Shown here: one piece after another, positions 31,044-63,242 of the stretch
Numbering within the stretch: the stretch's first letter is position 1
Layout of the letters: each line of letters starts with the position of its first letter
Source: Candidatus Berkelbacteria bacterium
GTDB taxonomy: Bacteria > Patescibacteriota > UBA1384 > XYA2-FULL-43-10 > 1-14-0-10-43-13
Direction: 5' to 3'
DNA length: 64,000 bases
NCBI GenBank assembly: GCA_037140515.1
Contig: JBAXEI010000004.1
Span: 8,453 to 72,452 of the forward strand
Notes under the pieces: model-generated
What the model saw: only the letters and a program-made list of their open reading frames with translations
What the model was told of the DNA's origin: nothing
Databases searched by the model: none
Made by a program: the position numbers and the translations under genes

Positions 31044-31114
31044 TGTCATTCCCGACCCGATCGGGAATCTATATATTCCGCCTGGATCCCAGCCTTCGCT
31101 GGGATCCAGAATAG
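31044..31114. repeat. Intergenic nested-hairpin repeat, copy A
   Basis: The sequence reads TGTCATTCCCGACCCGATCGGGAATCTATATATTCCGCCTGGATCCCAGCCTTCGCTGGGATCCAGAATAG. It contains two perfect hairpins, and its modules are shared with copies at 31945, 42484, 56164 and 63151. Confidence 0.75.
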
Positions 31115-31124
31115 GCCATATTTG

Positions 31125-31856
31125 CTACAAATTTGCGTTTGAGTACACATTATTCACATCATCAAGATCGTCGATCAAATCAATTATCGTTTCGATCTGC
31201 GCAACCTTGTCGGCTGGCACATCGTTATAGACCATAGCTTGATGAACAATCTCAGCACTATCGATTTTGATGCCAGCGGCCTCGAGATTTGTCTTTACTT
31301 TATTTAGCTCTGTAAAGCCACAAGTAACGATGATCAGCCCATCTTCAATAGAAAAATCATCAGCACCAGACTCGATAATTGCCATTTCCATCTCTTCGCC
31401 CTTGAGCGTATTCTTGGCCTGTTCGATAAGCAGCTGACCAACTTTTTTGAACAAATAATTCACGCTGTTGCTAGAGGCAAGCGTTCCACCTTTTTTGTTC
31501 AAGATCGCGCGAATTTCGCCGATCGCTCGATTCTTGTTGTCCGTCAGACACTCGATGAGTATCGCCGTGCCACCTGGGGCGTATGCTTCGTAGATGACTT
31601 CCTCTAGCATCGCGCCGCCTTCTGCGCCGCCAAGACCTTTTTTGATCGCACGATCAATATTTTCCTTTGGCATGCTCGCGGCCTTCGCATTATCAACTGC
31701 AAGACGCAGCCCTGGATTCATCATGACGTCGCCGCTCTTACCATCCCTGGCTGCGATTGTGATCAGCTTAGCTGCCTTAGTGAAGAGCTTTGCGCGCTTC
31801 GCATCAATCCCCGCTTTTTTTCTCTTAGTGGTCGCCCATTTGCTATGTCCGGACAT
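31125..31856 (-). CDS. yebC: YebC/PmpR family DNA-binding transcriptional regulator
   Basis: The N-terminus reads MSGHSKWATTKRKKAGIDAKRAKLFTK. The protein is 243 aa. Confidence 0.9.
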   Translation of the reverse strand: MSGHSKWATTKRKKAGIDAKRAKLFTKAAKLITIAARDGKSGDVMMNPGLRLAVDNAKAASMPKENIDRAIKKGLGGAEGGAMLEEVIYEAYAPGGTAILIECLTDNKNRAIGEIRAILNKKGGTLASSNSVNYLFKKVGQLLIEQAKNTLKGEEMEMAIIESGADDFSIEDGLIIVTCGFTELNKVKTNLEAAGIKIDSAEIVHQAMVYNDVPADKVAQIETIIDLIDDLDDVNNVYSNANL

Positions 31857-31944
31857 GTTGCTCCTTACAATTTAGAATTTTTCTTTTTAGGATTACTCTT
31901 TTTATATCAAACAAATGCGACAAAAGCGAGGAATGGAATAAATC

Positions 31945-32033
31945 TGTCATTCCGGACTCGATCCGGAATCCAGAATACAATTTGAAGGAAAGCTTCCTGG
32001 ATTCCACCTCTCAAGCTTACAGGCTGGAATGAC
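31945..32033. repeat. Intergenic nested-hairpin repeat, copy B
   Basis: The sequence is TGTCATTCCGGACTCGATCCGGAATCCAGAATACAATTTGAAGGAAAGCTTCCTGGATTCC, ending GGAATGACG. The terminal inverted repeats are GTCATTCC and GGAATGAC. Confidence 0.75.
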
Positions 32034-32041
32034 GTGCTAAA

Positions 32042-32962
32042 TTATTCTGGGAAAACACCATCCTTATTCAATATAAATCTGACAGTGCCATTTTGATCAG
32101 TCCGATGAATAATCAGGCCATATTCTTTTAATAATGTTAGTGCCGCCTCATGCGGATGACCAAACTGATTATTGAGCCCGACGGAGATGACTGCATGGAT
32201 TGCTTTCACATTTTCCAGCAAATTTTCACCTGTGCCGTTTTCCGAGCCATGGTGCGCGACTTTCAGAATCTGCGCCTGCAACTCACTTAGTTTGTTTTCC
32301 TTCATATAATATGCAATCATCTCCTCTCGTTCGCCGACCTCCATATCGCCGGTAAATAAAGCACAGCTATCGAAGGTACAGAATCGAAATACTTCAGAAG
32401 AATTATTCAGATTATCGATCTCTTTCGACAAATAAGTGTCTCCAGGCCACAAGAAATCAATTTTGCCGTCCGCAAAAGGTGCAATCTCATCACCGACTTT
32501 TGGCACCTTGAAAGGAATCTTCTTATTCTTAGTCTTAGTCTTAATTTTATCCAAAAATTCTAAATACAAGCTCGAAGTTGAGACAACGCCAGTCGAGATC
32601 ACCTCGCCGACTTCATAGCGCTCCAATACCTGGTTCAATCCTGTAATATGATCAGCGTGTGGATGGGTTAGAATCATGTGCTCGATCTTGCGATCGCCTG
32701 CTGGCATCACACTACCAAGCTCGGCCAAAACTTTGTCATCTGGACCACCATCTATCAAAATTTGCTGATCTCCCTCCTGGATTAAGGCTGCATCACCCTG
32801 CCCAACATCAAAAAAGTAAATCTGAACTCCAGCAATTGCTGGCTTCTTGGAAATTTCGGTAAATATTAAGACGCAACAAACTAACAAAAAAACCAAAATA
32901 AACTGCGTCAGCTTCTTCATTTGACCACCTGATAAAAGGCCATCGGCAAACGAGCCAGCCAA
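32042..32962 (-). CDS. comEC: ComEC C-terminal metallo-beta-lactamase-fold domain protein (stand-alone, membrane-anchored)
   Basis: The MBL motifs read IYFFDVGQGDAALI and ILTHPHADHITG. An N-terminal TM helix is present. A likely alternative start (MKKL, at 32920) forms an ATGA overlap with the stop of the upstream ComEC N-terminal ORF. Confidence 0.7.
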   Translation of the reverse strand: MAGSFADGLLSGGQMKKLTQFILVFLLVCCVLIFTEISKKPAIAGVQIYFFDVGQGDAALIQEGDQQILIDGGPDDKVLAELGSVMPAGDRKIEHMILTHPHADHITGLNQVLERYEVGEVISTGVVSTSSLYLEFLDKIKTKTKNKKIPFKVPKVGDEIAPFADGKIDFLWPGDTYLSKEIDNLNNSSEVFRFCTFDSCALFTGDMEVGEREEMIAYYMKENKLSELQAQILKVAHHGSENGTGENLLENVKAIHAVISVGLNNQFGHPHEAALTLLKEYGLIIHRTDQNGTVRFILNKDGVFPE

Positions 32963-34362
32963 TTTACGATGACGATGATGTACTCGAGAAATGGCCAGAG
33001 CAGAAGTGCGGCAATCTTACCAAGTGGATAATAAATCATCGAAGAAACGCCGACCCAAAATGTCATAATCATTGCATATGGGACGATGAAAACCACGAGC
33101 AGGTTCGCCGCTGGCGAGATGAAGGAAACAGTGCCAAATTGTAATAATATGAGGGGAGCGACGGCCAGCTGAGCTCCAAGCGTCTCGGCCAAGCTGTGCT
33201 TCCAGAAATCTGAGATAACTCTGTGACCATCGAATTTGTCGATAATTTTCTCAAAAATTGGTGAAAAGTAAATCAGACCCGCGAAAGCCAGAAACGAAAG
33301 CTGGAAGCCAAGATCTGAGCGAATGATAAACGGATTCGCAAGCACCATCGCGACAGCCGCCACCAACATCAAGTTGGTCTGATCCCCTCTTCGCCCGATC
33401 GTCTTGCCAAAAATCAGCATCATTGAGAAAATCGCCGCCCGAACCACACTCGAGCAAGCACCAGTCATGACAACAAATGCCAAGATAAATAGAAGTCCGA
33501 GCCAAAAAGACCTCTTCTTTCCCAAGTAAACGCAGACCAGATTCATGAAAATGGCGATGATGATCGTCACATTGAAGCCCGAGAGCGCAATGATATGAGT
33601 GAGACCAGTTTTTTGCAACGAAGACATGAAATCGTCAGAGATATTTCGCTTGATGCCGAGCAAGATTCCTGCCGCGAGTGACGCTTGCGGCTCAGGAATT
33701 ACTCTGTTTAATGCCTGCTCGAAATATGTCGAGGTTTCATACAAGGCTTCGGCAATTTTCCAGCCGAAGCCAGAGTTTGCGGCCACAAATGTGACGTTTG
33801 CGGGATTACGCACCGTGCCTGTGACCAGCTTCCCCTTAAGATAGCCGGCGTAGTCGAAGCCATCGAGAATCACGGGCTGCTCGACCACGGCGGTGATTTC
33901 CAATTTCTCGCCAAAATGGTATTGTGGAAACCTTGGCAAAGTCACAAGCAGCTTTGCTGATTGATTTCGCTGGGTCGTAGCATTGAAAATTTCTGTCTCG
34001 AAAACGAGCTTTTGCTGTTTGTAATCAATCTCGGGCTTCGTGACGATTCGTCCAGTAAATGTGATTTCGCCATTACTTGTACAGGGCGGAAAACCTTGAT
34101 CAAAATGAGCGTAGTACGCCATCGCTCCAAGCAAAATAACTAGTCCTAGAGAGAACAAAGCGATAAATTTGTTCTTTAGTAAAAAATTGATAAAAGCGAC
34201 CAGAATGAGACCAACCGCCCCAAATACGAAGATTGGCCAAGAGGCCACGAGATCAATATTTACGAACGAGGCGAGAAGTGTGCCTGATAAGAAAAGACAT
34301 GAGATCAGGGTGAAGATCCGAAATGGAAAATAAAGATTTTTCCAGCTTAATCTCTTGAACAT
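32917..34362 (-). CDS. comEC: ComEC/Rec2 N-terminal part (DUF4131 plus polytopic competence channel domain)
   Basis: The competence-domain motif reads QKTGLTHIIALSGFNVTIIIAIF. The protein is 481 aa with many TM helices and lacks the MBL domain, which is encoded by the next ORF. Confidence 0.7.
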   Translation of the reverse strand: MFKRLSWKNLYFPFRIFTLISCLFLSGTLLASFVNIDLVASWPIFVFGAVGLILVAFINFLLKNKFIALFSLGLVILLGAMAYYAHFDQGFPPCTSNGEITFTGRIVTKPEIDYKQQKLVFETEIFNATTQRNQSAKLLVTLPRFPQYHFGEKLEITAVVEQPVILDGFDYAGYLKGKLVTGTVRNPANVTFVAANSGFGWKIAEALYETSTYFEQALNRVIPEPQASLAAGILLGIKRNISDDFMSSLQKTGLTHIIALSGFNVTIIIAIFMNLVCVYLGKKRSFWLGLLFILAFVVMTGACSSVVRAAIFSMMLIFGKTIGRRGDQTNLMLVAAVAMVLANPFIIRSDLGFQLSFLAFAGLIYFSPIFEKIIDKFDGHRVISDFWKHSLAETLGAQLAVAPLILLQFGTVSFISPAANLLVVFIVPYAMIMTFWVGVSSMIYYPLGKIAALLLWPFLEYIIVIVNWLARLPMAFYQVVK

Positions 34363-34428
34363 AATTTCTCGAAATGTTATTTAAGGTTATAATAACATAA
34401 ACAATAGAATTCATAACAAAGGAATAAA

Positions 34429-34944
34429 ATGAAAAACAATACCGAAGAGCAAGTACAGCCTGAGCCAAAGAAGAAAAATGTAAAAATTGATCCGAAATAT
34501 GTTGCCGAGCTGGAACAAAAAGTCAGCGAGCTATCTTCTGGCTGGCTTCGAACCCAAGCCGATTTTCAAAACTTCCGTCGGCAAACCGAGGAAGACCGAA
34601 AGAAGCTCATCAAGATGGCGAGTAACGATCTCATGATGGAGATCTTGCCTGTGCTGGATAACTTTCAGCTTGCAGCCAAGCACGTCCCAGCTGAACTTGA
34701 GAGTAACAATTGGACACAGGGCATCAAACAAATCGAAAAACAACTTGAAAATATACTAGAGAGCGAAGGTCTGACACGAATTCAAACTGTTGGCGCAGAG
34801 TTCAGCCCACACTTCCACGAAGCAATCGAACACGTCTCTTCAGATCAGCCAGAGGGCACAATCACGGAAGAAATTTCAGCTGGCTATGAATTTGACGGCA
34901 ATGTCATCCGCCCAGCTAAGGTCAAAGTCTCAAGCGGAAAATAG
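34429..34944 (+). CDS. grpE: Nucleotide exchange factor GrpE
   Basis: The conserved region reads LRTQADFQNFRRQTEEDRKKLIKMASNDLMMEILPVLDNFQLA. An AAAGGA ribosome-binding site and a TATAAT box (34388-34393) lie upstream. Confidence 0.85.
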   Translation: MKNNTEEQVQPEPKKKNVKIDPKYVAELEQKVSELSSGWLRTQADFQNFRRQTEEDRKKLIKMASNDLMMEILPVLDNFQLAAKHVPAELESNNWTQGIKQIEKQLENILESEGLTRIQTVGAEFSPHFHEAIEHVSSDQPEGTITEEISAGYEFDGNVIRPAKVKVSSGK

Positions 34945-34965
34945 ATTTTTGGCATAATTAAAACA

Positions 34966-34985
34966 GACCGCCCATTCGGGCGGTC
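34966..34985. terminator. Bidirectional hairpin terminator between convergent grpE and 34998-35348 genes
   Basis: A perfect 8 bp GC-rich stem (GACCGCCC ATTC GGGCGGTC) has an A-run on one side. Confidence 0.5.
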
Positions 34986-34997
34986 CGTCGATACATA

Positions 34998-35348
34998 TTA
35001 CTTAATTTGTCCAATGGCCTTAGCTTGCTCTATGACTTCCTTGGCAAATTCTTCAGGGAATATTGCCGAAGCGATTCCACCAATTAGACTGCTCAACACC
35101 GCGTATGCTACTGGGCGGCAGCCAACGTATTGACTTTGGATTGGCTTACCGTCGACATCACTTATACCCGTCTCCATATCATGAAGTGTCGTGGCGTAAG
35201 TCATTACAAATCCTATCGGGTATAGCTCAGGATTCAGCCGATCAGCCAGTAGTCTACCAAAATCATAGAGGATCTCCTCTTGATTAGGTATGTATTGGGC
35301 AAGGTTACGAAGCTTCTGCTTAGCTTCATCTGTCGAAATCAGTATCAT
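34998..35348 (-). CDS. Hypothetical protein (116 aa)
   Basis: The ORF lies between grpE and dnaK on the opposite strand. No family was recognised. Confidence 0.35.
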   Translation of the reverse strand: MILISTDEAKQKLRNLAQYIPNQEEILYDFGRLLADRLNPELYPIGFVMTYATTLHDMETGISDVDGKPIQSQYVGCRPVAYAVLSSLIGGIASAIFPEEFAKEVIEQAKAIGQIK

Positions 35349-35458
35349 GATAATCCTCCTTAGGGATAACCATATGGTTCAGAATATATTTATATTACCA
35401 CATTTTGTAACGTCTGTCAATATTAGAACGATATTTTTCACTGTATTAAGCATAGGTC

Positions 35459-35496
35459 TTGACAAAATGTAAAGTCTGCTTTACATTTAGTATATA
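35459..35496 (+). promoter_or_regulatory. Putative dnaK promoter (TTGACA-N17-TACATT) with embedded palindrome TGTAAAG-N5-CTTTACA
   Basis: The -35 box TTGACA lies at 35459-35464 and the -10-like TACATT at 35482-35487. The inverted repeat spans 35468-35486 and overlaps the spacer and the -10 box. No CIRCE element (TTAGCACTC-N9-GAGTGCTAA) was found. Confidence 0.4.
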
Positions 35497-35591
35497 TTGG
35501 ATTGGAGCAAAAGGTCGTTGCACCCCCTCCGCACCGACTTCTGCTCCACCGATATACAACATTTTATAAACAATTAGTTAGAAGGAGTATT

Positions 35592-37472
35592 ATGGGAAAA
35601 ATCATTGGGATTGACCTCGGTACAACAAATTCCGCTGTCGCTATCATGGAAGGTGGCGAAGCAAAAATCATCGCCTCATCAGAGGGCGGTAGAACTGTTC
35701 CATCTATTGTCACAGAGACCAAAAAAGGCGATCGCCTTGTCGGTCAGCTTGCCAAGAGACAGGCAGTTACAAACGCTGAAAATACTATTTTTTCAGTCAA
35801 ACGTTTCATCGGCCGAAGCTTCGACGATGCAGACGCTCAGGCAGATTTGAAGAAAATGCCTTATGGCAGCAAAAAAGCTTCTGACGGCTCGATCCGTGTA
35901 GTTATGAATACGAAGGATTATAGCCCACAGGAAATCTCAGCTTTCATCTTGCAAAAGCTAAAAGCTGACGCTGAGACCTATCTTGGCGAGACAGTTACCG
36001 AAGCTGTAATCACTGTTCCTGCTTATTTCAACGATGCACAGCGTCAAGCAACAAAAGATGCTGGTAAAATCGCTGGCCTAGAAGTAAAAAGAATCATCAA
36101 CGAGCCAACGGCTGCAGCTCTTGCATATGGCTTGGACAAAAAGAAAAATGAAAAAATCGCTGTTTACGACCTTGGTGGTGGTACATTTGATATCACAATC
36201 TTGGAGCTTGGCGATGGCGTATTTGAAGTAAAAGCAACCAACGGTGATACTCACCTTGGTGGTGACGACTTCGACCAGATCATCATGGACTTCATCATTG
36301 ATGAGTTCAAGAAAGATCAGGGAATCGATCTTCACACTGACAAAGCGGCAATTCAGAGAGTCAAGGAAGCGGCCGAAAAAGCCAAAATCGAGCTCTCAAC
36401 AGCTGTTGAGTCCGAGATCAATCTACCATTTGTCACTGCCGACGCTTCAGGGCCTAAGCATTTGCAAATGACGATTTCTCGCTCCCAGATGGAGAAAATG
36501 ATCGCGGCTCTAGTAGAAAAAACTCTAAAGCCATGCGAAAAAGTACTCAAAGACGCGAAGATGACGATCAAAGACATTGACGAAGTCATCCTAGTCGGTG
36601 GTATGACTCGTATGCCAGTCGTTCGAGAAGCGGTCAAGAAATTCTTCGACAAAGAGCCAAATCACTCTGTAAATCCTGACGAAGCTGTCGCTATCGGCGC
36701 TGCTGTTCAGGGCGGTGTGCTTACTGGTGAGGTCAAAGACCTTCTTCTGCTCGACGTGACTCCACTTTCTCTCGGTATCGAGACTTTGGGCGGCGTTTCG
36801 ACTAAATTGATCGAGAGAAACACAACCGTTCCAACTTCAAAATCACAAATTTTCTCTACAGCAGCTGACAATCAGACTTCTGTTGAGATCCACGTTTTGC
36901 AGGGCGAGCGCGAATTTGCTGCTGACAACAAAACTCTAGGCAGATTTATCCTAGATGGTATGCCACCAGCACCTCGCGGCGTTCCACAGGTTGAAGTCAC
37001 ATTTGATATCGATGCCAACGGCATTGTAAATGTAAAGGCGACAGACAAAGCTTCTGGCAAAGAGCAACGAATCACGATCACTAGCTCATCTGGGCTTAGT
37101 GAGCAGGAAATCGAGCGAATGCGCAAGGAAGCCGAAGAGCACGCTGACGACGACAAGAAGAAAAAAGAAATCATCGAAGCTAGAAATATGGCTGACAGCC
37201 TCATTTACACTGCTGAGAAATCAATCAAGGATGCTGGCGACAAAGTCGACACAAACTTGAAATCAGATGTAGAAGAAAAAATCAAAACGCTTAAGGATGT
37301 GAAGGACACTGACAACGCTGAGGAGATCAAGACTCAGACGGAAGCTCTAAGCACTTCCCTGCAGGAACTTGGCAAGAAGATGTACGAACAAGCTGCCAAA
37401 GAACAGCCAAAAGAGGAAGCTAAGGAAGACGAAAAAAAAGATACAGAAGAGCCAAAAGAAGAGACTAAATAA
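35592..37472 (+). CDS. dnaK: Molecular chaperone DnaK (Hsp70)
   Basis: The N-terminus reads [22 protein letters not shown] and is preceded by a GAAGGAG ribosome-binding site. The ORF track opens 30 codons upstream (35502). Hsp70 signatures DLGGGTFD and [11 protein letters not shown] are present. Confidence 0.95.
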
Positions 37473-37490
37473 ATTCTAACGGCGAAAGAT

Positions 37491-37520
37491 TATGGGCAAG
37501 GCAACGCTGCCTTGCCCATA
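37491..37520 (+). terminator. Strong hairpin after dnaK
   Basis: A perfect 13 bp stem (TATGGGCAAGGCA ACGC TGCCTTGCCCATA) is present. The downstream T-run is weak. Confidence 0.5.
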
Positions 37521-40083: not shown

Positions 40084-40158
40084 GGGCCGTTAGCTCAATG
40101 GTAGAGCAGTGGCCTTTTAAGCCATTGGTTCTGGGTTCGATCCCCAGGCGGCCCACCA
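40084..40158 (+). tRNA. tRNA-Lys (TTT)
   Basis: The cloverleaf has acceptor stem GGGCCGT/GCGGCCC, anticodon loop CTTTTAA, T-loop GGTTCGATCC and an encoded CCA. Confidence 0.85.
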
Positions 40159-40163
40159 AAAAA

Positions 40164-40190
40164 AGTTTCCAAATATTGGAAACTTTTTTT
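40164..40190 (+). terminator. Rho-independent terminator after tRNA-Lys
   Basis: A perfect 9 bp stem (AGTTTCCAA ATA TTGGAAACT) is followed by TTTTTTT. Confidence 0.65.
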
Positions 40191-40263
40191 GTAGAGTCGT
40201 CTGGGGATGGGGTCGGGAAACGGGATTTTTTTGTGAATATTCTAACGAAAATTTTGCAATTGA

Positions 40264-40585: not shown

Positions 40586-42382
40586 TTATTCGTTTCTTAG
40601 CACTTTGATGAAGACATCTGATGGCACTTCCACTCGGCCGATCGATTTCATCTTCTTCTTGCCCTTTTTCTGCTTATCTAAGAGTTTATTTTTTCGTGTG
40701 ATATCACCGCCATACAGACCAACAATCACGTCTTTGCGATATGGGGAGATCTTCTCTGATGCGACTACTTTTGCCCCGATCGCTGCCTGAATCTTGATCT
40801 CAAAATTTTGTCTTGGGATTAGTTCCTTCAATCTTTCGGTGATGCGGCGGCCCTCGGTCATAGTCTTGGATTTATGAGTAATGAAGCTAAGCGCATCAAC
40901 CTTGTCTAGGTTGATAAGAATATCAACTTTTTCCAAGTCTGAAGAGCGATATCCAGTTGGCTCATAGCTCATCGAAGCATATCCCTTGGAAACACTTTTT
41001 AGCTGATCGTATAGATCAATAATAACCTCAGCAAGAGGGATATCGTAACGAATAATTGCTCGAGATTCATCTAAGTATTCAATATTTTTGTACTCAGCTC
41101 TTTTCTTCTGGACCGCTTCCATACATGAGCCGACATAATCTTTTGGCGTAAATATTTCGAGCGAAACCCAAGGCTCAGAAACTTCACGATAGGTGCCAGG
41201 CTCAGGCAGGTCCCCTGGTTTCTCGATCTCGACAACTTCGCCGCCAAGCTTAACGACTTTGTAACGCACGGATGGACTAGAGATAACAAGCGAAAGATTG
41301 TACTCACGCTCTAGTCGCTCACGGACGATATCTAAGTGCAGAAGTCCAAGAAAGCCACAACGAAAGCCGAAGCCAAGCGCGTCAGAGCGCTCAGGCTCAA
41401 AGGCGAGAGAAGCGTCATTCATTTTCAACTTTTCAATCGCCTCTTTTAGCTCTGGATAGTCATCGCCGTCTGTACAGTATATAGAGGCAAAAACAGATGG
41501 AGCGATTTGTTTGTAGCCAGGCAAAGGGGACTCGGCTGGTTGTGATTTTGAGGTGATAGTATCACCAACGCGAGCCTCAGCAACACTGCGAAAACCTGTA
41601 ATGATGTAGCCAATTTCGCCAGTAAGAAGGGGAGTATGAGGAAAATATTTTGGCTTGAAGTAGCCAGTTTCGATGATTTCGCCATCGCTTTTTGTTTGCA
41701 TTAGAAAAAACTTTTCATTTTTCTGGACCTGCCCATCGACGATACGGACAAAAGCAACGACGCCACGATATGGGTCATAAACAGAGTCAAAGATGAGGGC
41801 CTTCAAACGATTGTCGGTCCCCCCTTGCGGACATGGAACTTTTTCGATTATAGCATCTAGGATTTCAGCGACGCCCTCCCCTGTCTTGCCAGAGGCAAAA
41901 AGAATGTCCTCGCGTTTGCAGCCAACGACTTTCATAATTTCTTCGGATACTTCCTCTGGTCGGGCGGCAGGGAGATCGATCTTGTTGACCACAGGAATGA
42001 TTGCAAGGTTGTTTTCGATAGCAGAATATAAGACGGAGAGTGTCTGCGCCTCGATGCCCTGAGAGGCATCCACGAGCAAAATAGCACCCTCGACAGCGGC
42101 TAGAGAACGCGAGACTTCGTACTGAAAATCGACATGGCCAGGAGTGTCAATCAAATTCAAAACTTGACCCTTCCAGTCCATCCGTACTGGGGCCAATTTG
42201 ATCGTAATACCACGCTCACGCTCAAGATCCATTGTGTCCAAAAGCTGCTCTTTCATAAGCCTTTTTTCGACAGTACCAGTGATCTCAAGCATTCGGTCAG
42301 CCAAAGTCGACTTACCGTGATCGATATGAGCGATAATACAAAAATTTCTGATTGTGTTTATATGATTTTCCATCAAGAGCAA
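40586..42382 (-). CDS. lepA: Elongation factor 4 (LepA)
   Basis: The N-terminus reads IRNFCIIAHIDHGKSTLADRMLEITG. The protein is 598 aa and carries the LepA-specific C-terminal domain. Confidence 0.95.
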   Translation of the reverse strand: MLLMENHINTIRNFCIIAHIDHGKSTLADRMLEITGTVEKRLMKEQLLDTMDLERERGITIKLAPVRMDWKGQVLNLIDTPGHVDFQYEVSRSLAAVEGAILLVDASQGIEAQTLSVLYSAIENNLAIIPVVNKIDLPAARPEEVSEEIMKVVGCKREDILFASGKTGEGVAEILDAIIEKVPCPQGGTDNRLKALIFDSVYDPYRGVVAFVRIVDGQVQKNEKFFLMQTKSDGEIIETGYFKPKYFPHTPLLTGEIGYIITGFRSVAEARVGDTITSKSQPAESPLPGYKQIAPSVFASIYCTDGDDYPELKEAIEKLKMNDASLAFEPERSDALGFGFRCGFLGLLHLDIVRERLEREYNLSLVISSPSVRYKVVKLGGEVVEIEKPGDLPEPGTYREVSEPWVSLEIFTPKDYVGSCMEAVQKKRAEYKNIEYLDESRAIIRYDIPLAEVIIDLYDQLKSVSKGYASMSYEPTGYRSSDLEKVDILINLDKVDALSFITHKSKTMTEGRRITERLKELIPRQNFEIKIQAAIGAKVVASEKISPYRKDVIVGLYGGDITRKNKLLDKQKKGKKKMKSIGRVEVPSDVFIKVLRNE

Positions 42383-42483
42383 TATACCAGATCCGAGAGC
42401 AAAAAACTACTCTCCTTAATATGTCATCCTTGGGGAGGACGAGCTGCTACATATTTAATTTAACAGAAAAGCGAGCCATAACC

Positions 42484-42548
42484 CGAGGATCCAGAATACA
42501 ATTCAGAATAAGGCTTCCTGGATTCCCGATCGGGTCGGGAATGACAGA
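42484..42548. repeat. Intergenic nested-hairpin repeat, copy C (inverted orientation)
   Basis: The segment GATTCCCGATCGGGTCGGGAATGACA is the exact reverse complement of the copy A hairpin. The segment CCAGAATACAATTCAGAATAAGGCTTCCTGGATTCC matches copy B. Confidence 0.75.
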
Positions 42549-42558
42549 GGGAAGGGCT

Positions 42559-43428
42559 CTACTTCCTTCCAAAAAGTGCAGAGAGAAAACCATTTTCCTT
42601 ATGATGACGCTTCAGAGCTTTCAAAAATTCTGCGGCGTGAGCCTCGGCATAGTCTTCACCAATCGCTCGTATCTCTACCATTTTTGTAAAATGAAACCAG
42701 CTAAATGTTTCGACAGGTGGTGTGAAAACGTAATCACATTTCTTCATCTCATAACGCGCAAGTTCTTTTTGCATTATATCGATCGAGCGAAGCGTTGAGA
42801 GCAGTCGTCCTGGCTCTTTACCCTCCACATCAAATTTATCCATCACTTCAATGTTATAGAGAGACGAACCGATAATGAAATCCATGCCCTTTTTGCGCAG
42901 TATTCCCGCAGGAAGATTACGACTAATACCCCCGTCAATCAAGCTTTTACCGTCAATATCTTGAGCAGGAAATGCACCAGGAAAAGCAGAGGAAGCCATA
43001 AGAGCGCTGACAAGGTCACCACTTTCTAGGTAAACAGGATTGCCTTCAGCAAAGTGCGTTGCTACACAAACAAAATTGATATTTAGATCATAAAATTTTT
43101 CAGGCAAATGTTTTTGTAGTGTTGTGCGAATAGTTTCAAAAGTTTTATCAGGAAGACCGCCGAAGATCAGATTGGCACGAGAAAACACGCCTTGTTTCTC
43201 AAGATCGGCAAGAAATGCTTCAATTCGGGCGACGCCGCCAGCCGCAAAAAGTGCACCGATGATCGCCCCAGCAGAAGTCCCTGAGATATATTTGATCGGA
43301 ATTTTCTCTTTCTCGATCATCTTTAGTACACCAATATGAGCTACACCGAGTACTCCACCACCAGAGAGGGCTAGACCGATTTTCATTTTACCTCCATACT
43401 TTTCAAAAGCTTGATCTCCTCTGCCCAA
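42559..43428 (-). CDS. Patatin-like phospholipase
   Basis: The N-terminus reads KIGLALSGGGVLGVAHIGVLK with the GTSAG nucleophile elbow. A catalytic Asp in a DGG motif is present. Confidence 0.8.
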   Translation of the reverse strand: MGRGDQAFEKYGGKMKIGLALSGGGVLGVAHIGVLKMIEKEKIPIKYISGTSAGAIIGALFAAGGVARIEAFLADLEKQGVFSRANLIFGGLPDKTFETIRTTLQKHLPEKFYDLNINFVCVATHFAEGNPVYLESGDLVSALMASSAFPGAFPAQDIDGKSLIDGGISRNLPAGILRKKGMDFIIGSSLYNIEVMDKFDVEGKEPGRLLSTLRSIDIMQKELARYEMKKCDYVFTPPVETFSWFHFTKMVEIRAIGEDYAEAHAAEFLKALKRHHKENGFLSALFGRK

Positions 43429-52238: not shown

Positions 52239-52239
52239 A

Positions 52240-56104: not shown

Positions 56105-56163
56105 TAGCAGAATCGATATATTTTGTGTTTTAATATGTATTTGATCGTAAATTATCAGTTTGT

Positions 56164-56216
56164 TGTTCCCGCGAAGTACGAAATCTATACTTAGCCCCGA
56201 TCCCAGCCTTCGCTTG
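56164..56216. repeat. Degenerate copy (E) of the intergenic repeat family
   Basis: The sequence CCCGCGAAGTACGAAATCTATAC...CCCGATCCCAGCCTTCGCT shares the CGCGAAG / GAATCTATA and GATCCCAGCCTTCGCT modules with copies A and D. Confidence 0.5.
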
Positions 56217-56298
56217 AATATTAAAATTACAAAGCCCTAATAGCCCGCTCATTGATTAATCACAGTCATTTTGATAGATTAGATCTAGACCAATATGA

Positions 56299-57880: not shown

Positions 57881-57905
57881 TCAACAAGTACATATACACA
57901 AAAAA

Positions 57906-57932
57906 AGTGATCCGAACCTCGGGTCACTTTTT
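57906..57932 (+). terminator. Rho-independent terminator after the L,D-transpeptidase gene
   Basis: The hairpin AGTGATCCG AACCT CGGGTCACT has one mismatch and is followed by TTTTT. Confidence 0.55.
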
Positions 57933-58025
57933 AATATACGTATTTATTGTTCAAGTCTATGCAGCAGGTGAAAAACTATTATTTTTACTTCTCAACCCGC
58001 TAGCTTCACGGAGTCGAAGAATAAA

Positions 58026-60527
58026 TTATTTAATCATTTCAAGCGTAATCTGATATTTGTCGCCTTCCTTCAGCTCGCCTCTTAGAACTTTATCGGCAAG
58101 AAGGTTCTCTAGCTTCTCCTCTATAACCCGCTGCATCGGACGAGCGCCCATTTCTGGGTCAAAGCCTAGCTCGGACAGATAAGCGATGGCGTCCTCGGCT
58201 ACAGTGATCTCAATGCCTTGTGTTTCCTGAATAGTTTTCTTGAGCGTGTCGATCATCAACTTCGCGATTTGTACAATCTCTGCTTGACTGAGCGGAGCAA
58301 AAGCAATAACCGCGCTAAAACGATTTAGTAGCTCAGCACGAAATAAATGCTGATCAACAATATAGCTAGTCAATTTTGCGGACACCTTACTGAAATCGAT
58401 ACCCTCTTTGATCGACTGATAAATAAGCTCGGAACCAGCATTTGAGGTAGCAATGATAATTGTATTAGCGAAGGAAACTTTTTTGCCTTCACCATCGGTC
58501 AGAAGTCCCTCATCAAGAATTTGTAAGAATAAGTTTAGGATATCAGGCTCTGCTTTCTCAATTTCATCAAAAAGTAAAAGCGAAAAAGGATTTTCCCGAA
58601 CTGCAGTCGTGAGATTCCCCTGCTCTGTACGGCTACCTATCAAGCGATATATGTCATCTTTATTTTGATACTCGCTCATGTCATATCTAATCATTTTGGC
58701 TTCCCCTCCAAAATAAACGTTTGCTAGCGCCTTTGCAGTAGCAGTCTTGCCGACACCTGTTGGGCCAAGAAAAAGAAATGAGCCGATAGGTTTGTGTGTA
58801 TCAGTGACCTTCGCTCGAGCACGACGGAGAGCATTCGCGATAGAATCAACAGCCATTGCTTGTCCGATTACAAGTGCGTGCATTTTTTGTTCAAGATTTA
58901 GTAGAATCTCCTGTTCCTTTGCTGCGACATCGCCAGTAGGTAAATCATACTTCTCAGCAATATAGCTTTCGATGTCTGCTGGGAGGATAATTGTTTCGCC
59001 TCTAGCCGCCACTGCTCTCGTCACCGCACCGTCAATAAGGCCTATAGATTTCTCAGGATTTGGCTGATTCAAGATATATTTGCTAGCCGCTTTGATCGCA
59101 GCTTTAATCGCTTCATATGAAACGATAGCTTTTGTTTGATATTCAATAGTAGGTATAGTGTCTTCAAGAACAGAAACCATTGCCTTGTCATCTGGCTCTC
59201 GCACGGTAACTTTCACAAAACGTTTTGCTAGAGCTCCATTTGGCAATATTGTGTTATTGTAGCCAGCAACGTCGCAAGAGCCAACAATGTGAATTTCATT
59301 GCTATCTAGATATGGCAAAATTACTTCTGACAAATTCGCTTTGCCGACAGTGTCACCGGAGAAAAGATTATCAATGTTTTCAATATATAGAATGACATTT
59401 CCAGCGCTGGCAGTCTCACTAAAAACTCTGCCGACCTTCTCCATCAGGGCACCCGGATCGGCTTCACCAGAAAGTAACGATTCTATATCGAGCTGAAATA
59501 TATGTCGTTTATTAAGAGTCGGATTGAGGTTTCCATTAACCAAATTCTTGACAAAGCCTAAGATTATTGTGCGCTTGCCAATCCCCGCATCGCCAACCAT
59601 GATCACGTTGCCGTTTGCCTGGCTCAAAAGTGCTTCTTCGATCTCACGAATCTCCTTTTCTCTAGCAATCACTTCAAGACTTAGACCGTATTCGCGAATC
59701 GATTCTGTAAGATCCATAGAATACATTCTAAGAAAGTTAGTATAACCAAAAACCCAATCTCGGCCTATGCCACCTGTCATTTTGAAACGACGATAATTGA
59801 ACACTCCCTCATTTTCGTCGACCTTATCATCTAGGGTCGCCTGCCAATGAACAATATTTGCGATGTCATCTGCGTTTAACCTTAAGTTTTTTAAGATTCC
59901 TTGGAAAAAAGCGTCGGAATCACAGAAAGCCCAAAAAACGTCCACGGCGGATATTTCTTTTCGATTTGCAATGATGGCCAAATCCAGAGCGTGCGCTATG
60001 AGATTGGTAGTTGATGTCGAAGAAGGATAGTTGCTGGTAATAATATTTATAATGTCTTCTTTACCCAAGCCAAGACGCAAAAGGATGAAGTTTATTTCAC
60101 GCGTATCCATGACCGCAAGTGCAAGGTTCTGCATTGTTTCAGAAACAGCATCTTTGCTGCCATACATTTTTTCCGTTGAGGCAGCAAAATCATAAGAAAA
60201 AAGAGCGTAGAGATTGACGATTTTACCCTCTGCAATGCGCTTTTTTGCCTCGGACAAAGATATCCTAGGCCTTCTGACTTTAGCAATAAAAAATTTTCTA
60301 AAAGCTAGATATACCAAGAAAACTGCAAGCAAAAGCAGGCAAAGACCGATAATTCTAAGATCAAAATGGTATAGAAACGAGCTTCCCAATACCAAGATCG
60401 AGCAAACACCCAACAACCAAACTGCAAAGAAAATAATGCGGAAGATAAAATTGGAGAAATATTTCGTCAAAACAACAGCTTTGTGAATAGTTGTCCCCGC
60501 AGGCCTAATGGTGATTTCAGTTTGCAT
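58026..60527 (-). CDS. Membrane-anchored Hsp100/Clp-family AAA+ ATPase (ClpC/ClpB-like) with degenerate first nucleotide-binding domain
   Basis: Two N-terminal TM helices are present. A Clp-N-like repeat region follows. D1 has Walker A GDAGIGKRT and Walker B YIENID, both degenerate. D2 is intact (GPTGVGKT, LLLFDEIEKA, ARPM). Confidence 0.8.
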   Translation of the reverse strand: MQTEITIRPAGTTIHKAVVLTKYFSNFIFRIIFFAVWLLGVCSILVLGSSFLYHFDLRIIGLCLLLLAVFLVYLAFRKFFIAKVRRPRISLSEAKKRIAEGKIVNLYALFSYDFAASTEKMYGSKDAVSETMQNLALAVMDTREINFILLRLGLGKEDIINIITSNYPSSTSTTNLIAHALDLAIIANRKEISAVDVFWAFCDSDAFFQGILKNLRLNADDIANIVHWQATLDDKVDENEGVFNYRRFKMTGGIGRDWVFGYTNFLRMYSMDLTESIREYGLSLEVIAREKEIREIEEALLSQANGNVIMVGDAGIGKRTIILGFVKNLVNGNLNPTLNKRHIFQLDIESLLSGEADPGALMEKVGRVFSETASAGNVILYIENIDNLFSGDTVGKANLSEVILPYLDSNEIHIVGSCDVAGYNNTILPNGALAKRFVKVTVREPDDKAMVSVLEDTIPTIEYQTKAIVSYEAIKAAIKAASKYILNQPNPEKSIGLIDGAVTRAVAARGETIILPADIESYIAEKYDLPTGDVAAKEQEILLNLEQKMHALVIGQAMAVDSIANALRRARAKVTDTHKPIGSFLFLGPTGVGKTATAKALANVYFGGEAKMIRYDMSEYQNKDDIYRLIGSRTEQGNLTTAVRENPFSLLLFDEIEKAEPDILNLFLQILDEGLLTDGEGKKVSFANTIIIATSNAGSELIYQSIKEGIDFSKVSAKLTSYIVDQHLFRAELLNRFSAVIAFAPLSQAEIVQIAKLMIDTLKKTIQETQGIEITVAEDAIAYLSELGFDPEMGARPMQRVIEEKLENLLADKVLRGELKEGDKYQITLEMIK

Positions 60528-60928
60528 TAGAAGAGTCCTAAACTATATTTAAGTCCGAAGTAAATCAAGGCAACAATTATTAGCGGAAAAAATATCCAAA
60601 ATATTATGTATGCAGACATAAGAACAAAGAATATTGCTATCATGATCAGATAGGTCAGAAGTGTGCCAAGCTTGACACAAAAGCCAACAATAACAGACGC
60701 CAAATTCAGAACCATCGACTCAAACATCGCTTTGATATTGAAGCCAGGTCCATCGTAAGTGACCGTGTCCCGTCGCCAAACAGAAAACAAGGTAGTCAGA
60801 CAAATCTTCACAGAAAAAAAATCATAAAGATATGCAAGCAGATGTTTAAAATAGCTAAAAGTGGCAGTAAGCATTTCGCCATACCACCAACTTATAAACA
60901 TTAGGCTTAAGTCTTTCCCCTCAGTCAT
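60527..60928 (-). CDS. Hypothetical small polytopic membrane protein, coupled to the Clp-like gene
   Basis: The ORF is 133 aa with 3 TM helices. Its stop codon overlaps the start of the Clp-like ATPase gene at 60527. Confidence 0.35.
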   Translation of the reverse strand: MTEGKDLSLMFISWWYGEMLTATFSYFKHLLAYLYDFFSVKICLTTLFSVWRRDTVTYDGPGFNIKAMFESMVLNLASVIVGFCVKLGTLLTYLIMIAIFFVLMSAYIIFWIFFPLIIVALIYFGLKYSLGLF

Positions 60929-60943
60929 AACTTTTTTGCGATA

Positions 60944-61201
60944 TTATTCTTCTTCTGGTTTGTCGTCTTTGTTTGAATCTAGAACAGAAATTGCAGCAAC
61001 CGGGCAGCTTGCAACGGCTTCGTCTATTAGGTCAGCATCTTCTTCCTTGTATGGTGCGATTGCATTGGCAAGGCCGTCTTCAAGCTGAAAATAATCAGGT
61101 GCAACACCCTCACAAGTTCCGCAACCAATGCAAACATTGTGATCAACTACAATTTTCTTAGTGCTTTTCTCTTCATCTTTTTCGCCCATAATACTCCTCA
61201 A
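60944..61201 (-). CDS. 4Fe-4S single-cluster ferredoxin
   Basis: The cluster motif reads CIGCGTCEGVAP, with a distal Cys in SCPVAAI. The protein is 85 aa and acidic. Confidence 0.8.
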   Translation of the reverse strand: MRSIMGEKDEEKSTKKIVVDHNVCIGCGTCEGVAPDYFQLEDGLANAIAPYKEEDADLIDEAVASCPVAAISVLDSNKDDKPEEE

Positions 61202-61254
61202 ATAATTATTTGTTTACGTTCACATTATAATAGAAAGATTGGCCGCTTGCAATC

Positions 61255-61291
61255 AAAAAAATACCTCCGCATTGCTACGAAGGTATTTTTT
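61255..61291 (-). terminator. Hairpin terminator downstream of the RRM gene
   Basis: The stem ATACCT...AGGTAT is flanked by AAAAAAA and TTTTTT. Confidence 0.45.
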
Positions 61292-61306
61292 ATAGTTTCG
61301 AGAATA

Positions 61307-61612
61307 TTATTCTGCGTCTCTATCTTTTTTTGGTCTTGCAAAGTCAACTTTGATTGCGCGGCCAGCAATTTCTTTGCCGTCCATGCCTTCTTTTGCTGCT
61401 GTTGCTTCTTCGACGGTCGCAAATTCGACGAAAGCGAAGCCCTTTGATCGGCCGGTGTCTGGGTATTTAACAACTGATGCAGAAACGACCTCACCAAATG
61501 CTCCGAAAGCAGTTTGAAGGTCCTCATCAGTAGCAGCCCAAGCTAATCCGCCAATAAAAAGTTTTTGATTTGGCTCTGCAGGGGTTTCATCCCTGTCTGT
61601 AACATTGTCCAT
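61307..61612 (-). CDS. RRM-type RNA-binding protein
   Basis: RNP-2 reads KLFIGGL and RNP-1 reads KGFAFVEF. The protein is 101 aa. Confidence 0.8.
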   Translation of the reverse strand: MDNVTDRDETPAEPNQKLFIGGLAWAATDEDLQTAFGAFGEVVSASVVKYPDTGRSKGFAFVEFATVEEATAAKEGMDGKEIAGRAIKVDFARPKKDRDAE

Positions 61613-61805
61613 TGTACTTATTTAGATTTAATTAGTAGTCAAAAACCCTAAATTCACAAATCAGCTGAATTAACGCTAGCACTCTAATCTAAATCTAACC
61701 TCGTTAAACTTCTAATTGATTCAGCTCTCGACCTATAGCTTAATCAAATGATAGAGGAATTTAGAAAAAAAATCCATATACTTTTGGAAATATCATCATT
61801 TATTG

Positions 61806-62420
61806 TTAGAAAAGATGGACAAAAATTTGAGGATATATTTTCACAGACTGATAAATCACATATACCAGTAAAATATTGACAAGTGGATAAAGAAGCAGGT
61901 TTTCAAACCATTTTCCTGTCTTGATTCGCATCTTCTCGAAAGGGTCTGGCGGAATACCAAAGTGGTAGCCAATCGGAAAAAGGATTGGAACGCCAGCCTC
62001 AGTCAAGGAGTCAGCGAATAAATGCGAAAAGTAGCCGATCACAAAGGCGAGAATCGCGTTGTGCATATCGAGAGATGGATAGAAGCCAAAGATTAATTTA
62101 GCTAACAGATAGAAGAGAAAAGTGAATATCGCCATGCCAAGAATTGAATGAGACAAGTGCCTATGGCCGCCGAGAAAAGCAGGGTGAATCAAGCGACCGA
62201 TGAAGGAGCCAGCGGGAATCTTGTGCCAAAGCTCCCCAGTCGGTGTATCGAGATCCGGCGCACTCGCCCCGAGCCATGTAGAGAGAACTAAAGTCAAAAT
62301 CAACGCAGGCGAAAACAGAAGACATGATTCTCCATTTGCGCCACAACGAGCGGACATAATTAGCAAAAAGAATGTCGCTGAGAAAAGCATGCCGGTAGAT
62401 AAATGTGTTTTGTAAGTCAT
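61806..62420 (-). CDS. DUF457/YdjM-like membrane-bound metal-dependent hydrolase
   Basis: The N-terminus reads MTYKTHLSTGMLFSATFF. Several conserved His residues lie in TM segments. The protein is 204 aa. Confidence 0.45.
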   Translation of the reverse strand: MTYKTHLSTGMLFSATFFLLIMSARCGANGESCLLFSPALILTLVLSTWLGASAPDLDTPTGELWHKIPAGSFIGRLIHPAFLGGHRHLSHSILGMAIFTFLFYLLAKLIFGFYPSLDMHNAILAFVIGYFSHLFADSLTEAGVPILFPIGYHFGIPPDPFEKMRIKTGKWFENLLLYPLVNILLVYVIYQSVKIYPQIFVHLF

Positions 62421-62451
62421 AGAGCTAATTATACCCGAAAAATATTTATCT

Positions 62452-62492
62452 GCATAAAAAAAGGAAGCCGACTGTCACTGTCAAGCTTCCTT
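62452..62492 (-). terminator. Rho-independent terminator overlapping the 3' end of the 62481-63059 gene
   Basis: A perfect 8 bp stem (AAGGAAGC...GCTTCCTT) is followed by a T-run on the minus strand. Confidence 0.55.
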
Positions 62493-63059
62493 ACGGAATG
62501 TTTTGATAAGATAATCCATCTTATCTGGAGTTGAAATTTTATCCCAAAATTGTCGGATAAAATCATAAGCCCAAGCATTTGCTTCGATATTCGCTAAGCG
62601 AATAATCTCAGCGTTATGAGCACGCATCAACTTCTCGTTGAAACTATCAACCGGTGTAATAACACGTCTTTTCACGACGTTTCGCTCGCCTTCAAGCTGA
62701 AGCAAGTTGCACCAGTGATGAGCGGTGATAAATGCTATAAACAGCGGATGCGAGATATCGCTCATCGAACAACCAAAATGATTTTGCGCAAACGAATTGT
62801 ATGCGACTAAAGACGAATCATGTTTTTTCTCGATTGCCCAATCACTATCTCTGGCAAGCAGAGTGATGACTGGCCTGTAATCATGAATTGGATCACCAAA
62901 CGACTTGTTTGGCTCAGCTGAAATTTTGCAAGCGCCAATTTCAACTTTCAAAGCACTGATCTTCGCAAAAGGATGTTCATCCTGAAGCAAAAGAAGTGTT
63001 CTAGCGACTACTGGCGTTTGACCGCCAGCATGCAGGTAAAGCGAAGAAATGTTTGTCAT
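62481..63059 (-). CDS. Hypothetical protein (192 aa)
   Basis: No family was recognised. The protein is His/Cys/Trp-rich and sits two ORFs downstream of nrdG. Confidence 0.35.
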   Translation of the reverse strand: MTNISSLYLHAGGQTPVVARTLLLLQDEHPFAKISALKVEIGACKISAEPNKSFGDPIHDYRPVITLLARDSDWAIEKKHDSSLVAYNSFAQNHFGCSMSDISHPLFIAFITAHHWCNLLQLEGERNVVKRRVITPVDSFNEKLMRAHNAEIIRLANIEANAWAYDFIRQFWDKISTPDKMDYLIKTFRKEA

Positions 63060-63150
63060 ATTCTTCTCCTCCGTTTTGTAGCGGTATCAACTATGAATAA
63101 CACAAAACAGCGCAAATAGATAGTCTCTGCGCTGTTTTTACAAAATGTTT

Positions 63151-63242
63151 TGTCATTCTCGCGAAGGCGGGAATCTATATAATGACTTGGATCCCCAGGC
63201 ATCACTCTCAGAGCCACATTGCGGATCCTGAGGATGACAAAA
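63151..63242. repeat. Intergenic nested-hairpin repeat, copy D
   Basis: The sequence is TGTCATTCTCGCGAAGGCGGGAATCTATATAATGACTTGGATCCCCAGG, ending GAGGATGACAA. The module CGGGAATCTATATA is shared with copy A. The terminal inverted repeats are TTGTCATTCTC and GAGGATGACAA. Confidence 0.7.

Follow-up and report, generated by a model that had tools for sequence, protein, structure and literature searches.

Intergenic hairpin repeats in a Berkelbacteria contig

The stretch of DNA analysed here (64,000 nucleotides, hereafter the window) comes from a Candidatus Berkelbacteria bacterium, a member of the candidate phyla radiation (CPR; Patescibacteria), and corresponds to positions 8,453 to 72,452 of contig JBAXEI010000004.1 (assembly GCA_037140515.1, forward strand). 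It carries a family of short hairpin repeats at five intergenic sites, four with an intact copy (A, 31044-31107; B, 31945-32034; C, 42422-42546; E, 63151-63239) and one with a decayed dimer (D, approximately 56160-56220, plus strand). A first inspection of the sequence (the original prediction) had proposed at least five repeats, all intergenic, at or near these positions; reading of the sequence confirms all five sites, and an independent repeat search recovered their shared modules. For copy C the site was right and the extent was not: the copy starts at 42422 and is about 60 nt longer than proposed, a left unit with a 47-nt loop having been overlooked.

The four intact copies are all located between co-directional genes, 7-24 nt past the stop codon of a minus-strand gene. 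Copy A lies between yebC (31125-31856, minus strand) and ruvC (30539-31030, minus strand), 17 nt past the stop codon of the former and 13 nt ahead of the start codon of the latter. It had been described as lying right after ruvC but, as these genes are on the minus strand, it follows the yebC stop and precedes the ruvC start. Copy B ends 7 nt from the stop codon of a metallo-beta-lactamase-fold gene (32042-32962, minus strand) and 1 kb from ComEC. Copy C, located between lepA (40586-42382, minus strand) and a patatin gene (42559-43428, minus strand), is 12 nt downstream of the patatin stop codon, as predicted, and copy E is 24 nt downstream of the stop codon of a radical-SAM gene (63264-63983, minus strand). 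The proposal that each copy adjoins a gene 3' end is thus correct for A, B, C, and E and fails for D, which is flanked by the 5' end of a CAP-domain gene on one side and by a tRNA-Met in divergent orientation on the other. The nearest named homologues of YebC are Candidatus Berkelbacteria proteins (approximately 70% identity). An Rfam 15 scan of the window retrieved only five tRNAs at or above gathering score, and no family overlaps the repeats even at E <= 1, in agreement with the expectation that they do not belong to an annotated non-coding RNA gene.

Each repeat is built from an oriented hairpin unit, which comprises a (T/C)GTC head, a stem of 8-9 bp with AT as its first two positions, a 4- or 5-nt loop (carrying a long insertion in some units), a C directly 3' of the palindrome, and a CCA or CTA tail. 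Once longer loops are allowed, intact copies B, C, and E each consist of two units with their heads outward, in the order 5'-TGTC, stem starting with AT, loop, stem, C(C/T)A, spacer, and a mirror unit ending in GACA/GACG. These dimers are 65-125 bp long and their short spacer has pairing ends (CCAG...CTGG).

In copy A, the first unit (31044-31071, plus strand) reads TGTC, ATTCCCGA, loop CCCGA, TCGGGAAT, and CTA, i.e., an 8-bp stem and a 5-nt loop typical of the CGTC-2 family introduced below. Its partner (31084-31107), at the yebC end of the copy, is the palindrome GGATCCCAG CCTTCG CTGGGATCC, which has no GTC head and is bordered on both sides by a tail-like CCA/TGG. The left unit of copy B (31945-31972, plus strand) reads TGTC, ATTCCGGA, loop CTCGA, TCCGGAAT, and CCA. 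It is followed by the spacer GAATACAATTTGAAGGAAAGCTTCC (31973-31997), which together with the tails gives GGAATCCAG...CTGGATTCC and belongs to the same family as the spacer of copy C, and by a right unit (31998-32034, minus strand) in which CGTC, ATTCCAGC, a 14-nt loop, GGTGGAAT, and CCA are read on the minus strand. Copy C is organised likewise, with a left unit (42422-42493, plus strand; TGTC, ATCCTTGGG, a 47-nt loop, CCCGAGGAT, CCA), the spacer GAATACAATTCAGAATAAGGCTTCC (42494-42518), and a right unit (42519-42546, minus strand) whose minus-strand reading is TGTC, ATTCCCGA, CCCGA, TCGGGAAT, and CCA. The left unit of copy E (63151-63178, plus strand; TGTC, ATTCTCGC, loop GAAG, GCGGGAAT, CTAT) is of the CGTC-1 or NTS type, with an 8-bp stem containing one mismatch and a 4-nt loop, and its right unit (63188-63239, minus strand) reads TGTC, ATCCTCAGG, a 27-nt loop, CCTGGGGAT, and CCA. 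Finally, the left half of decayed copy D resembles the left unit of E (GTTCCCGCGAAGTACGAAATCTATA) and its right half resembles the partner hairpin of A (GATCCCAGCCTTCGCTTGAAT).

The window therefore contains seven units with a head, a partner without one, and a decayed dimer. The head is TGTC in six units (A, both units of C, both units of E, and B left) and CGTC in one (B right), while the A partner and D are headless. All stems of headed units (ATTCCCGA, ATTCCGGA, ATTCTCGC, ATTCCAGC, ATCCTTGGG, and ATCCTCAGG) are 8-9 bp long and start with AT; the tail is CCA in both units of B, both units of C, and E right, and CTA in A and E left. Loops are GAAG in E and CCCGA or CTCGA in A, B, and C, and are expanded to 14, 27, and 47 nt in three partner units. 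The repeat search revealed that A (31044-31069) and C (42521-42546, read as reverse complement) are identical over 26 nt. It also detected a 31-nt inverted match between B and C (90% identity), a 38-nt arm in direct orientation between the same two copies (84% identity), and a 34-nt direct match between A and D (79% identity). A unit detector (GTC, a stem starting with AT, a loop of 3-7 nt, and a complementary stem with at most one mismatch) found 4 canonical units in the window, as compared with 0.47 expected per shuffled window.

The repeats belong to the CGTC family of REP sequences

These repeats are CGTC/TGTC-tagged repetitive extragenic palindromic (REP) sequences, from the family that includes Neisseria dRS3/NTS, the Rickettsia palindromic elements RPE-4 and RPE-6, and the Ssn-related motifs (SRM). 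As defined by Di Nocera, De Gregorio, and Rocco in 2013 (BMC Genomics 14:522, PMC3733652), CGTC REPs have a CGTC head that is often TGTC (CCTC being allowed), an 8-9 bp stem starting with AT, and a tail close to CCA; their loops are 4 nt long in family 1 and 5 nt long in families 2-4, with deviating loops in some species. They are mostly found as dimers, whose spacer ends can be complementary, near the 3' end of the upstream open reading frame (ORF) and between co-directional genes, for which roles at the RNA level were proposed. In the same survey, CGTC-1 of Neisseria equals dRS3, RPE-4 and RPE-6 are assigned to CGTC-4 and CGTC-1, respectively, and the repeats are reported from five phyla, none of them CPR (PMC3733652).

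The Neisseria repeat has since been redefined as the 28-nt NTS, CGTCATTCCCGCGMAVGCGGGAATCYRG, and generalised to the SRM, with the expression HGTCWYN(0-2)YYVSBRHN(0-5)WNVSBRGN(0-2)RNCYNB (Chenal 2025, Nat Commun 16:2388, PMC11893778). According to this study, SsnA is a small single-domain GIY-YIG protein which binds the hairpin solely as single-stranded DNA and solely on the strand that carries the head. It cuts the DNA just upstream and does not bind the RNA form of the motif. Binding depends most on the C right after the palindrome and cutting on the three bases preceding the palindrome. The ssn gene (GIY-YIG, cd10448) is typically flanked by the motif and, in N. meningitidis, the Ssn system lowers the integration of NTS-bearing transforming DNA; the search for the system was conducted on RefSeq representatives (PMC11893778).

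In the window, the left unit of copy E shares 25 of the 28 positions of the NTS consensus and fits the SRM expression. It is the only match to this expression across the window, versus 0.18 in shuffles. All canonical window units keep both GTC before the palindrome and C after it, i.e., the positions most critical for SsnA, which fits their interpretation as Ssn sites. The original prediction had likened the elements to REP, BIME (bacterial interspersed mosaic element), or MITE (miniature inverted-repeat transposable element) sequences. The first part of this analogy is borne out, as we are dealing with a REP family with BIME/NIME-like mosaic dimers (NIME, neisserial intergenic mosaic element), while the lack of target-site duplications (see below) speaks against MITEs; the CGTC family and its Ssn single-stranded DNA nuclease partner had gone unrecognised. 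For annotation, the repeats should be labelled as CGTC-type REPs or Ssn-related motifs and the ORFs overlapping them treated as spurious. Three such ORFs span copies A, C, and E (30897-31142, plus strand, 81 aa; 42352-42798, plus strand, 148 aa; and a 53-aa JGI call at 1674-1835 of L128, another assembly of the same population) and are most likely spurious calls made by the repeats.

Distribution across bacterial phyla

A search for further copies in other genomes, which the original prediction had called for, was rewarded abundantly. We scanned a genome collection with the core pattern TGTCATTCCNGANNNNNTCNGGAATC, which has 19 fixed bases and for which we estimate approximately 4 chance matches in 596 Gb. 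The matches listed comprise at least 120 stretches spread over roughly 25 phyla, among them many CPR lineages, Chloroflexota, Desulfobacterota, Planctomycetota, Bacteroidota, Ignavibacteriota, Nitrospirota, Spirochaetota, Thermotogota, Elusimicrobiota, Verrucomicrobiota, Campylobacterota, several proteobacterial classes, and Dependentiae, as well as the cultured Aquimarina and Undibacterium. RefSeq representatives are largely devoid of CPR. The family is wider than described in the two studies cited above, with five phyla in the 2013 survey versus roughly 25 here for a near-identical 26-nt unit.

The 120 listed loci (831 kb) contain 265 units, versus 2 in shuffles. Their head is TGTC in 228 cases and CGTC in 30, their tail is CCA in 136 and CTA in 51, and the first base of the tail is C in 249 of the 265. 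Loops, read from the head side, are GAAA in 34 units, GAAG in 7, GCAG in 5, and CTTC in one, and this strand asymmetry fits recognition of a single strand. Only 18% of the units are located inside predicted ORFs, as compared with 77% of random positions.

To obtain a model independent of the window, we built a covariance model (R1) from 39 distinct 5-nt-loop units of other genomes only, and searched the window with filters off. It retrieved B left (E = 8e-13), C right (E = 4.6e-11), and A unit 1 (E = 5.5e-11), then E left (E = 3.9e-4), B right (E = 4.4e-3), E right (E = 0.027), and, partially, the headless A partner (E = 0.03). No further site was found across the 64 kb, and copy D went undetected. 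The C following the palindrome is invariant in the 39 units of the alignment, a base that the detector had not demanded. All cells of the alignment (100%) pair, with 59 double changes; this statistic is partly circular because the detector demanded perfect pairing, and it serves only as evidence of stem diversity.

A second widespread hairpin, (GTC)ATCCTGAGC-YTGTCGAAGG-AT, is present alongside TGTC units in several phyla (L015, L052, L137 at 4700-4740, and other loci). In L137, it is located just upstream of a small GIY-YIG gene that directly follows a tRNA. This hairpin may represent another subtype of Ssn-related motif.

Ssn-type genes flanked by hairpin units

Do genomes carrying these units also carry an ssn gene? 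Phmmer searches for small GIY-YIG proteins, followed by Pfam confirmation, detected Ssn-type genes in two of the 120 listed loci (L042 and L118), in both cases between head-out units. In L042, which belongs to a Dehalococcoidaceae, the gene is flanked by one 4-nt-loop unit and one 5-nt-loop unit of the type found in window copies A and C, and it carries an in-frame stop. A strict GIY-YIG regular expression retrieved nothing from the listed loci. When the L118 protein was used as query in a database search, homologues named from CPR lineages were obtained. Two Woykebacteria loci (L139 and L143) and one Levybacteria locus (L145) have the gene between (C/T)GTC-ATTCTGG units, and a Blackburnbacteria locus (L147) has canonical units upstream of the gene and, as read by eye, a long-loop end ...CCAGAATGACA downstream. 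These four loci, from three CPR lineages, indicate that a cassette of the Neisseria type exists in CPR bacteria.

We also looked for a partner by neighbourhood, clustering every ORF of 90 aa or more in the 120 listed loci. Only housekeeping families recur (SDR, acyltransferase, HolB, MnmA, methionine aminopeptidase, and GT2), and none was retained as a candidate.

Turnover and mosaicism of the repeats

Four relatives keep the order ComEC, metallo-beta-lactamase gene, yebC, ruvC, and galT but differ at these junctions. In three of them (L122, L123, and L126; YebC 74-76% identical) no repeat is present; in L122 and L123 the yebC stop overlaps the ruvC start. The fourth (L124, YebC 72% identical) has other REP dimers, with stem ATTCCTGC and a common spacer, one location being the yebC-ruvC junction itself and another the region ahead of yebC.

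The modules recombine, as had been suggested. A metagenome scan detected the 25-nt B/C spacer in eight related contigs, where it is joined to no fewer than six distinct units on the right and to two on the left. The entire composite of copy C (approximately 125 nt) recurs at 93-95% identity in other contigs of the same lake metagenomes, in contexts without lepA and patatin homologues, and its large-loop left unit is kept at 93% identity in L130, L133, and L135. This recurrence with swapped units argues for dispersal of whole dimers. The 26-nt identity between copies A and C is exact, but the recent mobility or gene conversion drawn from it is weakly argued. The same 26-mer is present in a gammaproteobacterial metagenome-assembled genome (L086) and in Candidatus Scalindua (L115), so that the identity reflects constraint and does not date the copies. 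The target-site duplications that the original prediction proposed to look for were not seen: reading the sequence around the four intact copies showed neither a duplication nor another flanking direct repeat.

One polymorphic insertion of a different kind was observed in the same population. Assembly L001, otherwise 100% identical to the window, has a 114-bp insertion (L001 1387-1507, between window positions 35576 and 35577) with no counterpart in the window, approximately 10 nt upstream of the ribosome-binding site of a dnaK-like gene (35593-37472, plus strand). It is bounded by a 7-bp direct repeat (AATTAGT) and forms a long imperfect hairpin (DNA z = -4.2). It is not a CGTC/SRM unit, and no second copy was found in any sequence of the analysis. 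It looks like a different, MITE-like element, polymorphic and thus recently active in this population.

Folding and transcription

Copies A and B fold far better than shuffled sequences on either strand, as RNA or DNA (z = -3.0 to -5.7). For copy A, z is -5.2 as RNA of the minus strand and -5.7 as DNA; copy B folds into a three-way junction closed by GUCAUUCC/GGAAUGAC (z = -3.0 to -3.6). Folds are weaker for C and E (z = -0.4 to -2.3), and copy D is also weak (z = -2.6).

The elements had also been proposed to double as terminators or mRNA-stabilising structures. Terminator scans of the four sites found no U-tract after any unit hairpin on the transcribed (minus) strand; the sole terminator-like call linked to a unit falls on the strand of A that is not transcribed, and there is a weak 5-bp call inside the large loop of C. 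The elements are not canonical intrinsic terminators, and the terminator role is not favoured. Stabilisation of mRNA, by analogy with E. coli REPs, is plausible.

Two other structures of the window could act as terminators. A hairpin at 63108-63145, downstream of E, was recognised by eye: ACAGCGCA...TGCGCTGT encloses a loop of 13 nt, and the hairpin is bordered by A5 at one end and by T5 at the other. It was missed by the automatic scan, whose loop limit is 8 nt, and has the appearance of an intrinsic terminator that works in both directions between copy E and the gene that follows. The other structure (40140-40208) is a 33-nt inverted repeat with 85% complementarity, a 3-nt gap, and A7/T7 runs, which starts inside the 3' end of a tRNA-Lys (40084-40158). 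Rfam yields only spurious sub-threshold microRNA matches to it, and it may represent a bidirectional terminator or the scar left at an integration site.

One further feature of the window bears no relation to the hairpin repeats. A 1018-aa ORF (1202-4258, plus strand) contains 99-nt tandem repeats at 82% identity together with further copies of a TCC-TAT/C-GAG-CCA module (Pro-Tyr-Glu-Pro-like), the segments 1358-1558 and 2758-2785 being the most notable, and probably encodes a repetitive surface protein.

Proposed recognition by a single-strand-specific nuclease

Taken together, these observations favour the view that the five sites are copies of CGTC REPs in which each unit is a strand-specific recognition site of an Ssn nuclease, by homology to the Neisseria and Wolbachia systems that have been characterised. 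We give this reading a probability of about 0.6. It would operate as follows. Each unit would be recognised on one strand by a small single-domain GIY-YIG endonuclease (Ssn). When the DNA is single-stranded, the dimers would fold into long or three-way hairpins, and Ssn would bind the folded hairpin only in this state, cutting just upstream of the head. For the host, such sites would mark single-stranded DNA for cutting and, if the Neisseria case can be transposed, would reduce the amount of incoming transforming DNA that is integrated. CPR bacteria have very small genomes and possess competence genes. Cutting of marked single-stranded DNA would bear on how CPR bacteria handle imported DNA. 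As the intact elements lie shortly past stop codons, a side effect would be the introduction of stable hairpins into 3' untranslated regions (UTRs). We infer by the same analogy that Ssn may act on the window copies and mobilise them, and that there may be effects on transformation or mRNA in this organism.

Several observations weigh against this reading. Neither an ssn nor any other GIY-YIG gene was detected in the 64-kb window by tblastn (E <= 10), and no Ssn gene is present in a further 7.8 kb beyond its right end, reached with a contig that is 100% identical to this end (L127); together these make approximately 72 kb of genome. On the left, the contig retrieved stops where the window begins. 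The only small GIY-YIG gene found in this organism (L127 2276-2521, minus strand, 81 aa), 5.2 kb past the right end of the window, is COG2827-like, a different subtype, and has no flanking repeat units. Its product is 32% identical to the Ssn of L042 and 43% identical to a consensus of the CPR type. Since only housekeeping neighbours recur in the 120 listed loci, the enzyme gene is rare relative to the repeats. The units of A, B, and C, with their 5-nt loops, do not fit the published SRM expression in the window scan. Lastly, wherever the four assemblies of this population (L001, L127, L128, and L129) include a repeat site, they agree with the window at 100% identity, with no presence/absence polymorphism of repeat copies among them.

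The region of this GIY-YIG ORF (L127 2042-2593, approximately 5.2-5.7 kb past the window) has an unusual organisation. The ORF is uncalled in the source record, is preceded by a perfect 20-nt palindrome (CCTGCCTGCCGGCAGGCAGG), and has on either side a copy of GATCCCCGATAGCTCAATTGGCA, which can be read as the beginning (5' part) of a tRNA-His(GTG)-like gene. The downstream copy runs on into an anticodon loop in which a group I intron is inserted (Rfam RF00028 at E = 3e-6 and 35 bits, under the gathering score), followed by the 3' half of the tRNA and CCA; this tRNA was not called by ARAGORN.

Could Ssn also move the repeats? The unit-ssn-unit cassette resembles a minimal mobile element, of which the scattered dimers would be non-autonomous derivatives. 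In its full form, this scenario holds that head-out dimers are moved in trans by the GIY-YIG single-stranded DNA nuclease, unit-ssn-unit being the autonomous form, and that the system is active across some 25 phyla including CPR. Mobilisation by Ssn was only raised as an idea by Chenal et al. (PMC11893778). We regard it as speculative but worth considering, because the composite recurs, sites are empty or swapped in relatives, and ssn adjoins units in five loci. Were it true, it would represent a mode of transposition built on a GIY-YIG nuclease instead of an HUH, DDE, or serine/tyrosine enzyme, and a trans-mobilised system in CPR could also gate the DNA uptake on which these bacteria are thought to depend.

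Two other explanations deserve attention alongside recognition by Ssn. The elements could work chiefly as RNA, their hairpins blocking 3'-to-5' exonucleases in 3' UTRs or attenuating read-through between co-directional genes. The position of the four intact copies just past minus-strand stop codons is what this explanation predicts, CGTC REPs have the same placement and had RNA roles proposed for them in the 2013 survey (PMC3733652), and the transcribed strands of A and B fold better than shuffles (z = -5.2 and -3.0). Those of C and E, however, do not (z = -0.9 and -1.5), no U-tract follows the units on the transcribed strand, and copy D is downstream of no gene. Orientation relative to transcription also varies, as the head-bearing unit is distal to the stop codon in A and proximal in C, and among 216 intergenic units of other genomes, 117 have a 3' end as their closest gene boundary and 99 a 5' end (with crude gene calls). 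Furthermore, a generic protective hairpin would leave the conserved unpaired GTC head and the C after the stem unexplained, and SsnA does not bind the RNA form (PMC11893778). A chiefly RNA-based function thus seems rather unlikely; the known Ssn partner points to a role at the DNA level and not at the RNA level alone, and the best-supported view is that RNA-level effects are secondary to recognition by Ssn. It is also conceivable, and in our opinion improbable, that the copies are inert relics of a family that once spread in this lineage and then lost its enzyme, persisting as harmless intergenic DNA. The absence of a partner gene within 72 kb, the lack of polymorphism among the four assemblies, the decay of D, the headless partner of A, and the long loop insertions of three units would be expected of relics, and Di Nocera et al. 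suggested that CGTC families may be heading toward extinction (PMC3733652). On the other hand, three units form perfect hairpins and retain both head and tail, two of them being identical over 26 nt, the composites of the lake metagenomes are highly similar in different contexts, ssn genes with flanking units are found in other CPR lineages, and 72 kb amounts to only about 7% of a genome of roughly 1 Mb.

The dimer layout and the terminal inverted repeats TGTCATTCC...GGAATGACA could also evoke classical REPINs, which are mobilised by an IS200/IS605-like tyrosine transposase (RAYT), or MITEs that descend from a DDE insertion sequence. We consider such an origin very improbable. The head is (T/C)GTC and not GTAG, the presumed terminal repeats are the hairpin units themselves, which also occur as singletons, and no target-site duplication was seen at the element ends in the sequences examined. 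In addition, no transposase family recurs near the 265 units of the 831 kb, and the published survey found neither a RAYT flanked by CGTC units nor an associated transposase (PMC3733652).

Comparison with known repeat systems

Among the closest counterparts of the window repeats are the CGTC-1 and CGTC-2 REPs, with which they share the head, the 8-bp AT stem, a loop of 4 nt (E) or 5 nt (A, B, and C), the CCA/CTA tail, the dimers with complementary spacer ends, and the 3' placement between co-directional genes. They differ from them by their host, here a member of the Patescibacteria/CPR, by loop insertions of 14, 27, and 47 nt, and by one headless partner. With the dRS3/NTS-SsnA system of Neisseria, the likeness lies in the sequence of the left unit of E, in the GTC and C that border the palindrome of all canonical units, and in the unit-ssn-unit layout, which recurs in L042, L118, L139, and L145; in contrast, the window has no ssn gene and its 5-nt-loop units fall outside the SRM expression. 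The Rickettsia RPE-4 and RPE-6 differ in that many copies are located in frame inside genes, whereas all window copies are intergenic.

The resemblance extends to NIMEs, in which palindromic ATTCC...GGAAT units surround short, lower-GC spacers with approximately 5-bp terminal inverted repeats and undergo mosaic recombination (Parkhill 2000; Bentley 2007, PMC1797815), but the window has isolated dimers instead of long arrays, and no clustering at surface-antigen genes. NIMEs were considered Neisseria-specific in 2007 (PMC1797815). Finally, the REP, BIME, and REPIN sequences of E. coli and Pseudomonas are likewise short, oriented extragenic palindromes with an unpaired 5' tetranucleotide, arranged as inverted dimers after genes, and the REP/REPIN-RAYT systems also include a single-copy enzyme gene flanked by repeats. 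Theirs is a GTAG head with an HUH/Y1 transposase, while the head is (T/C)GTC and the enzyme belongs to the GIY-YIG family in the present case. What is new here is only the host, a CPR bacterium, and the breadth of the distribution.

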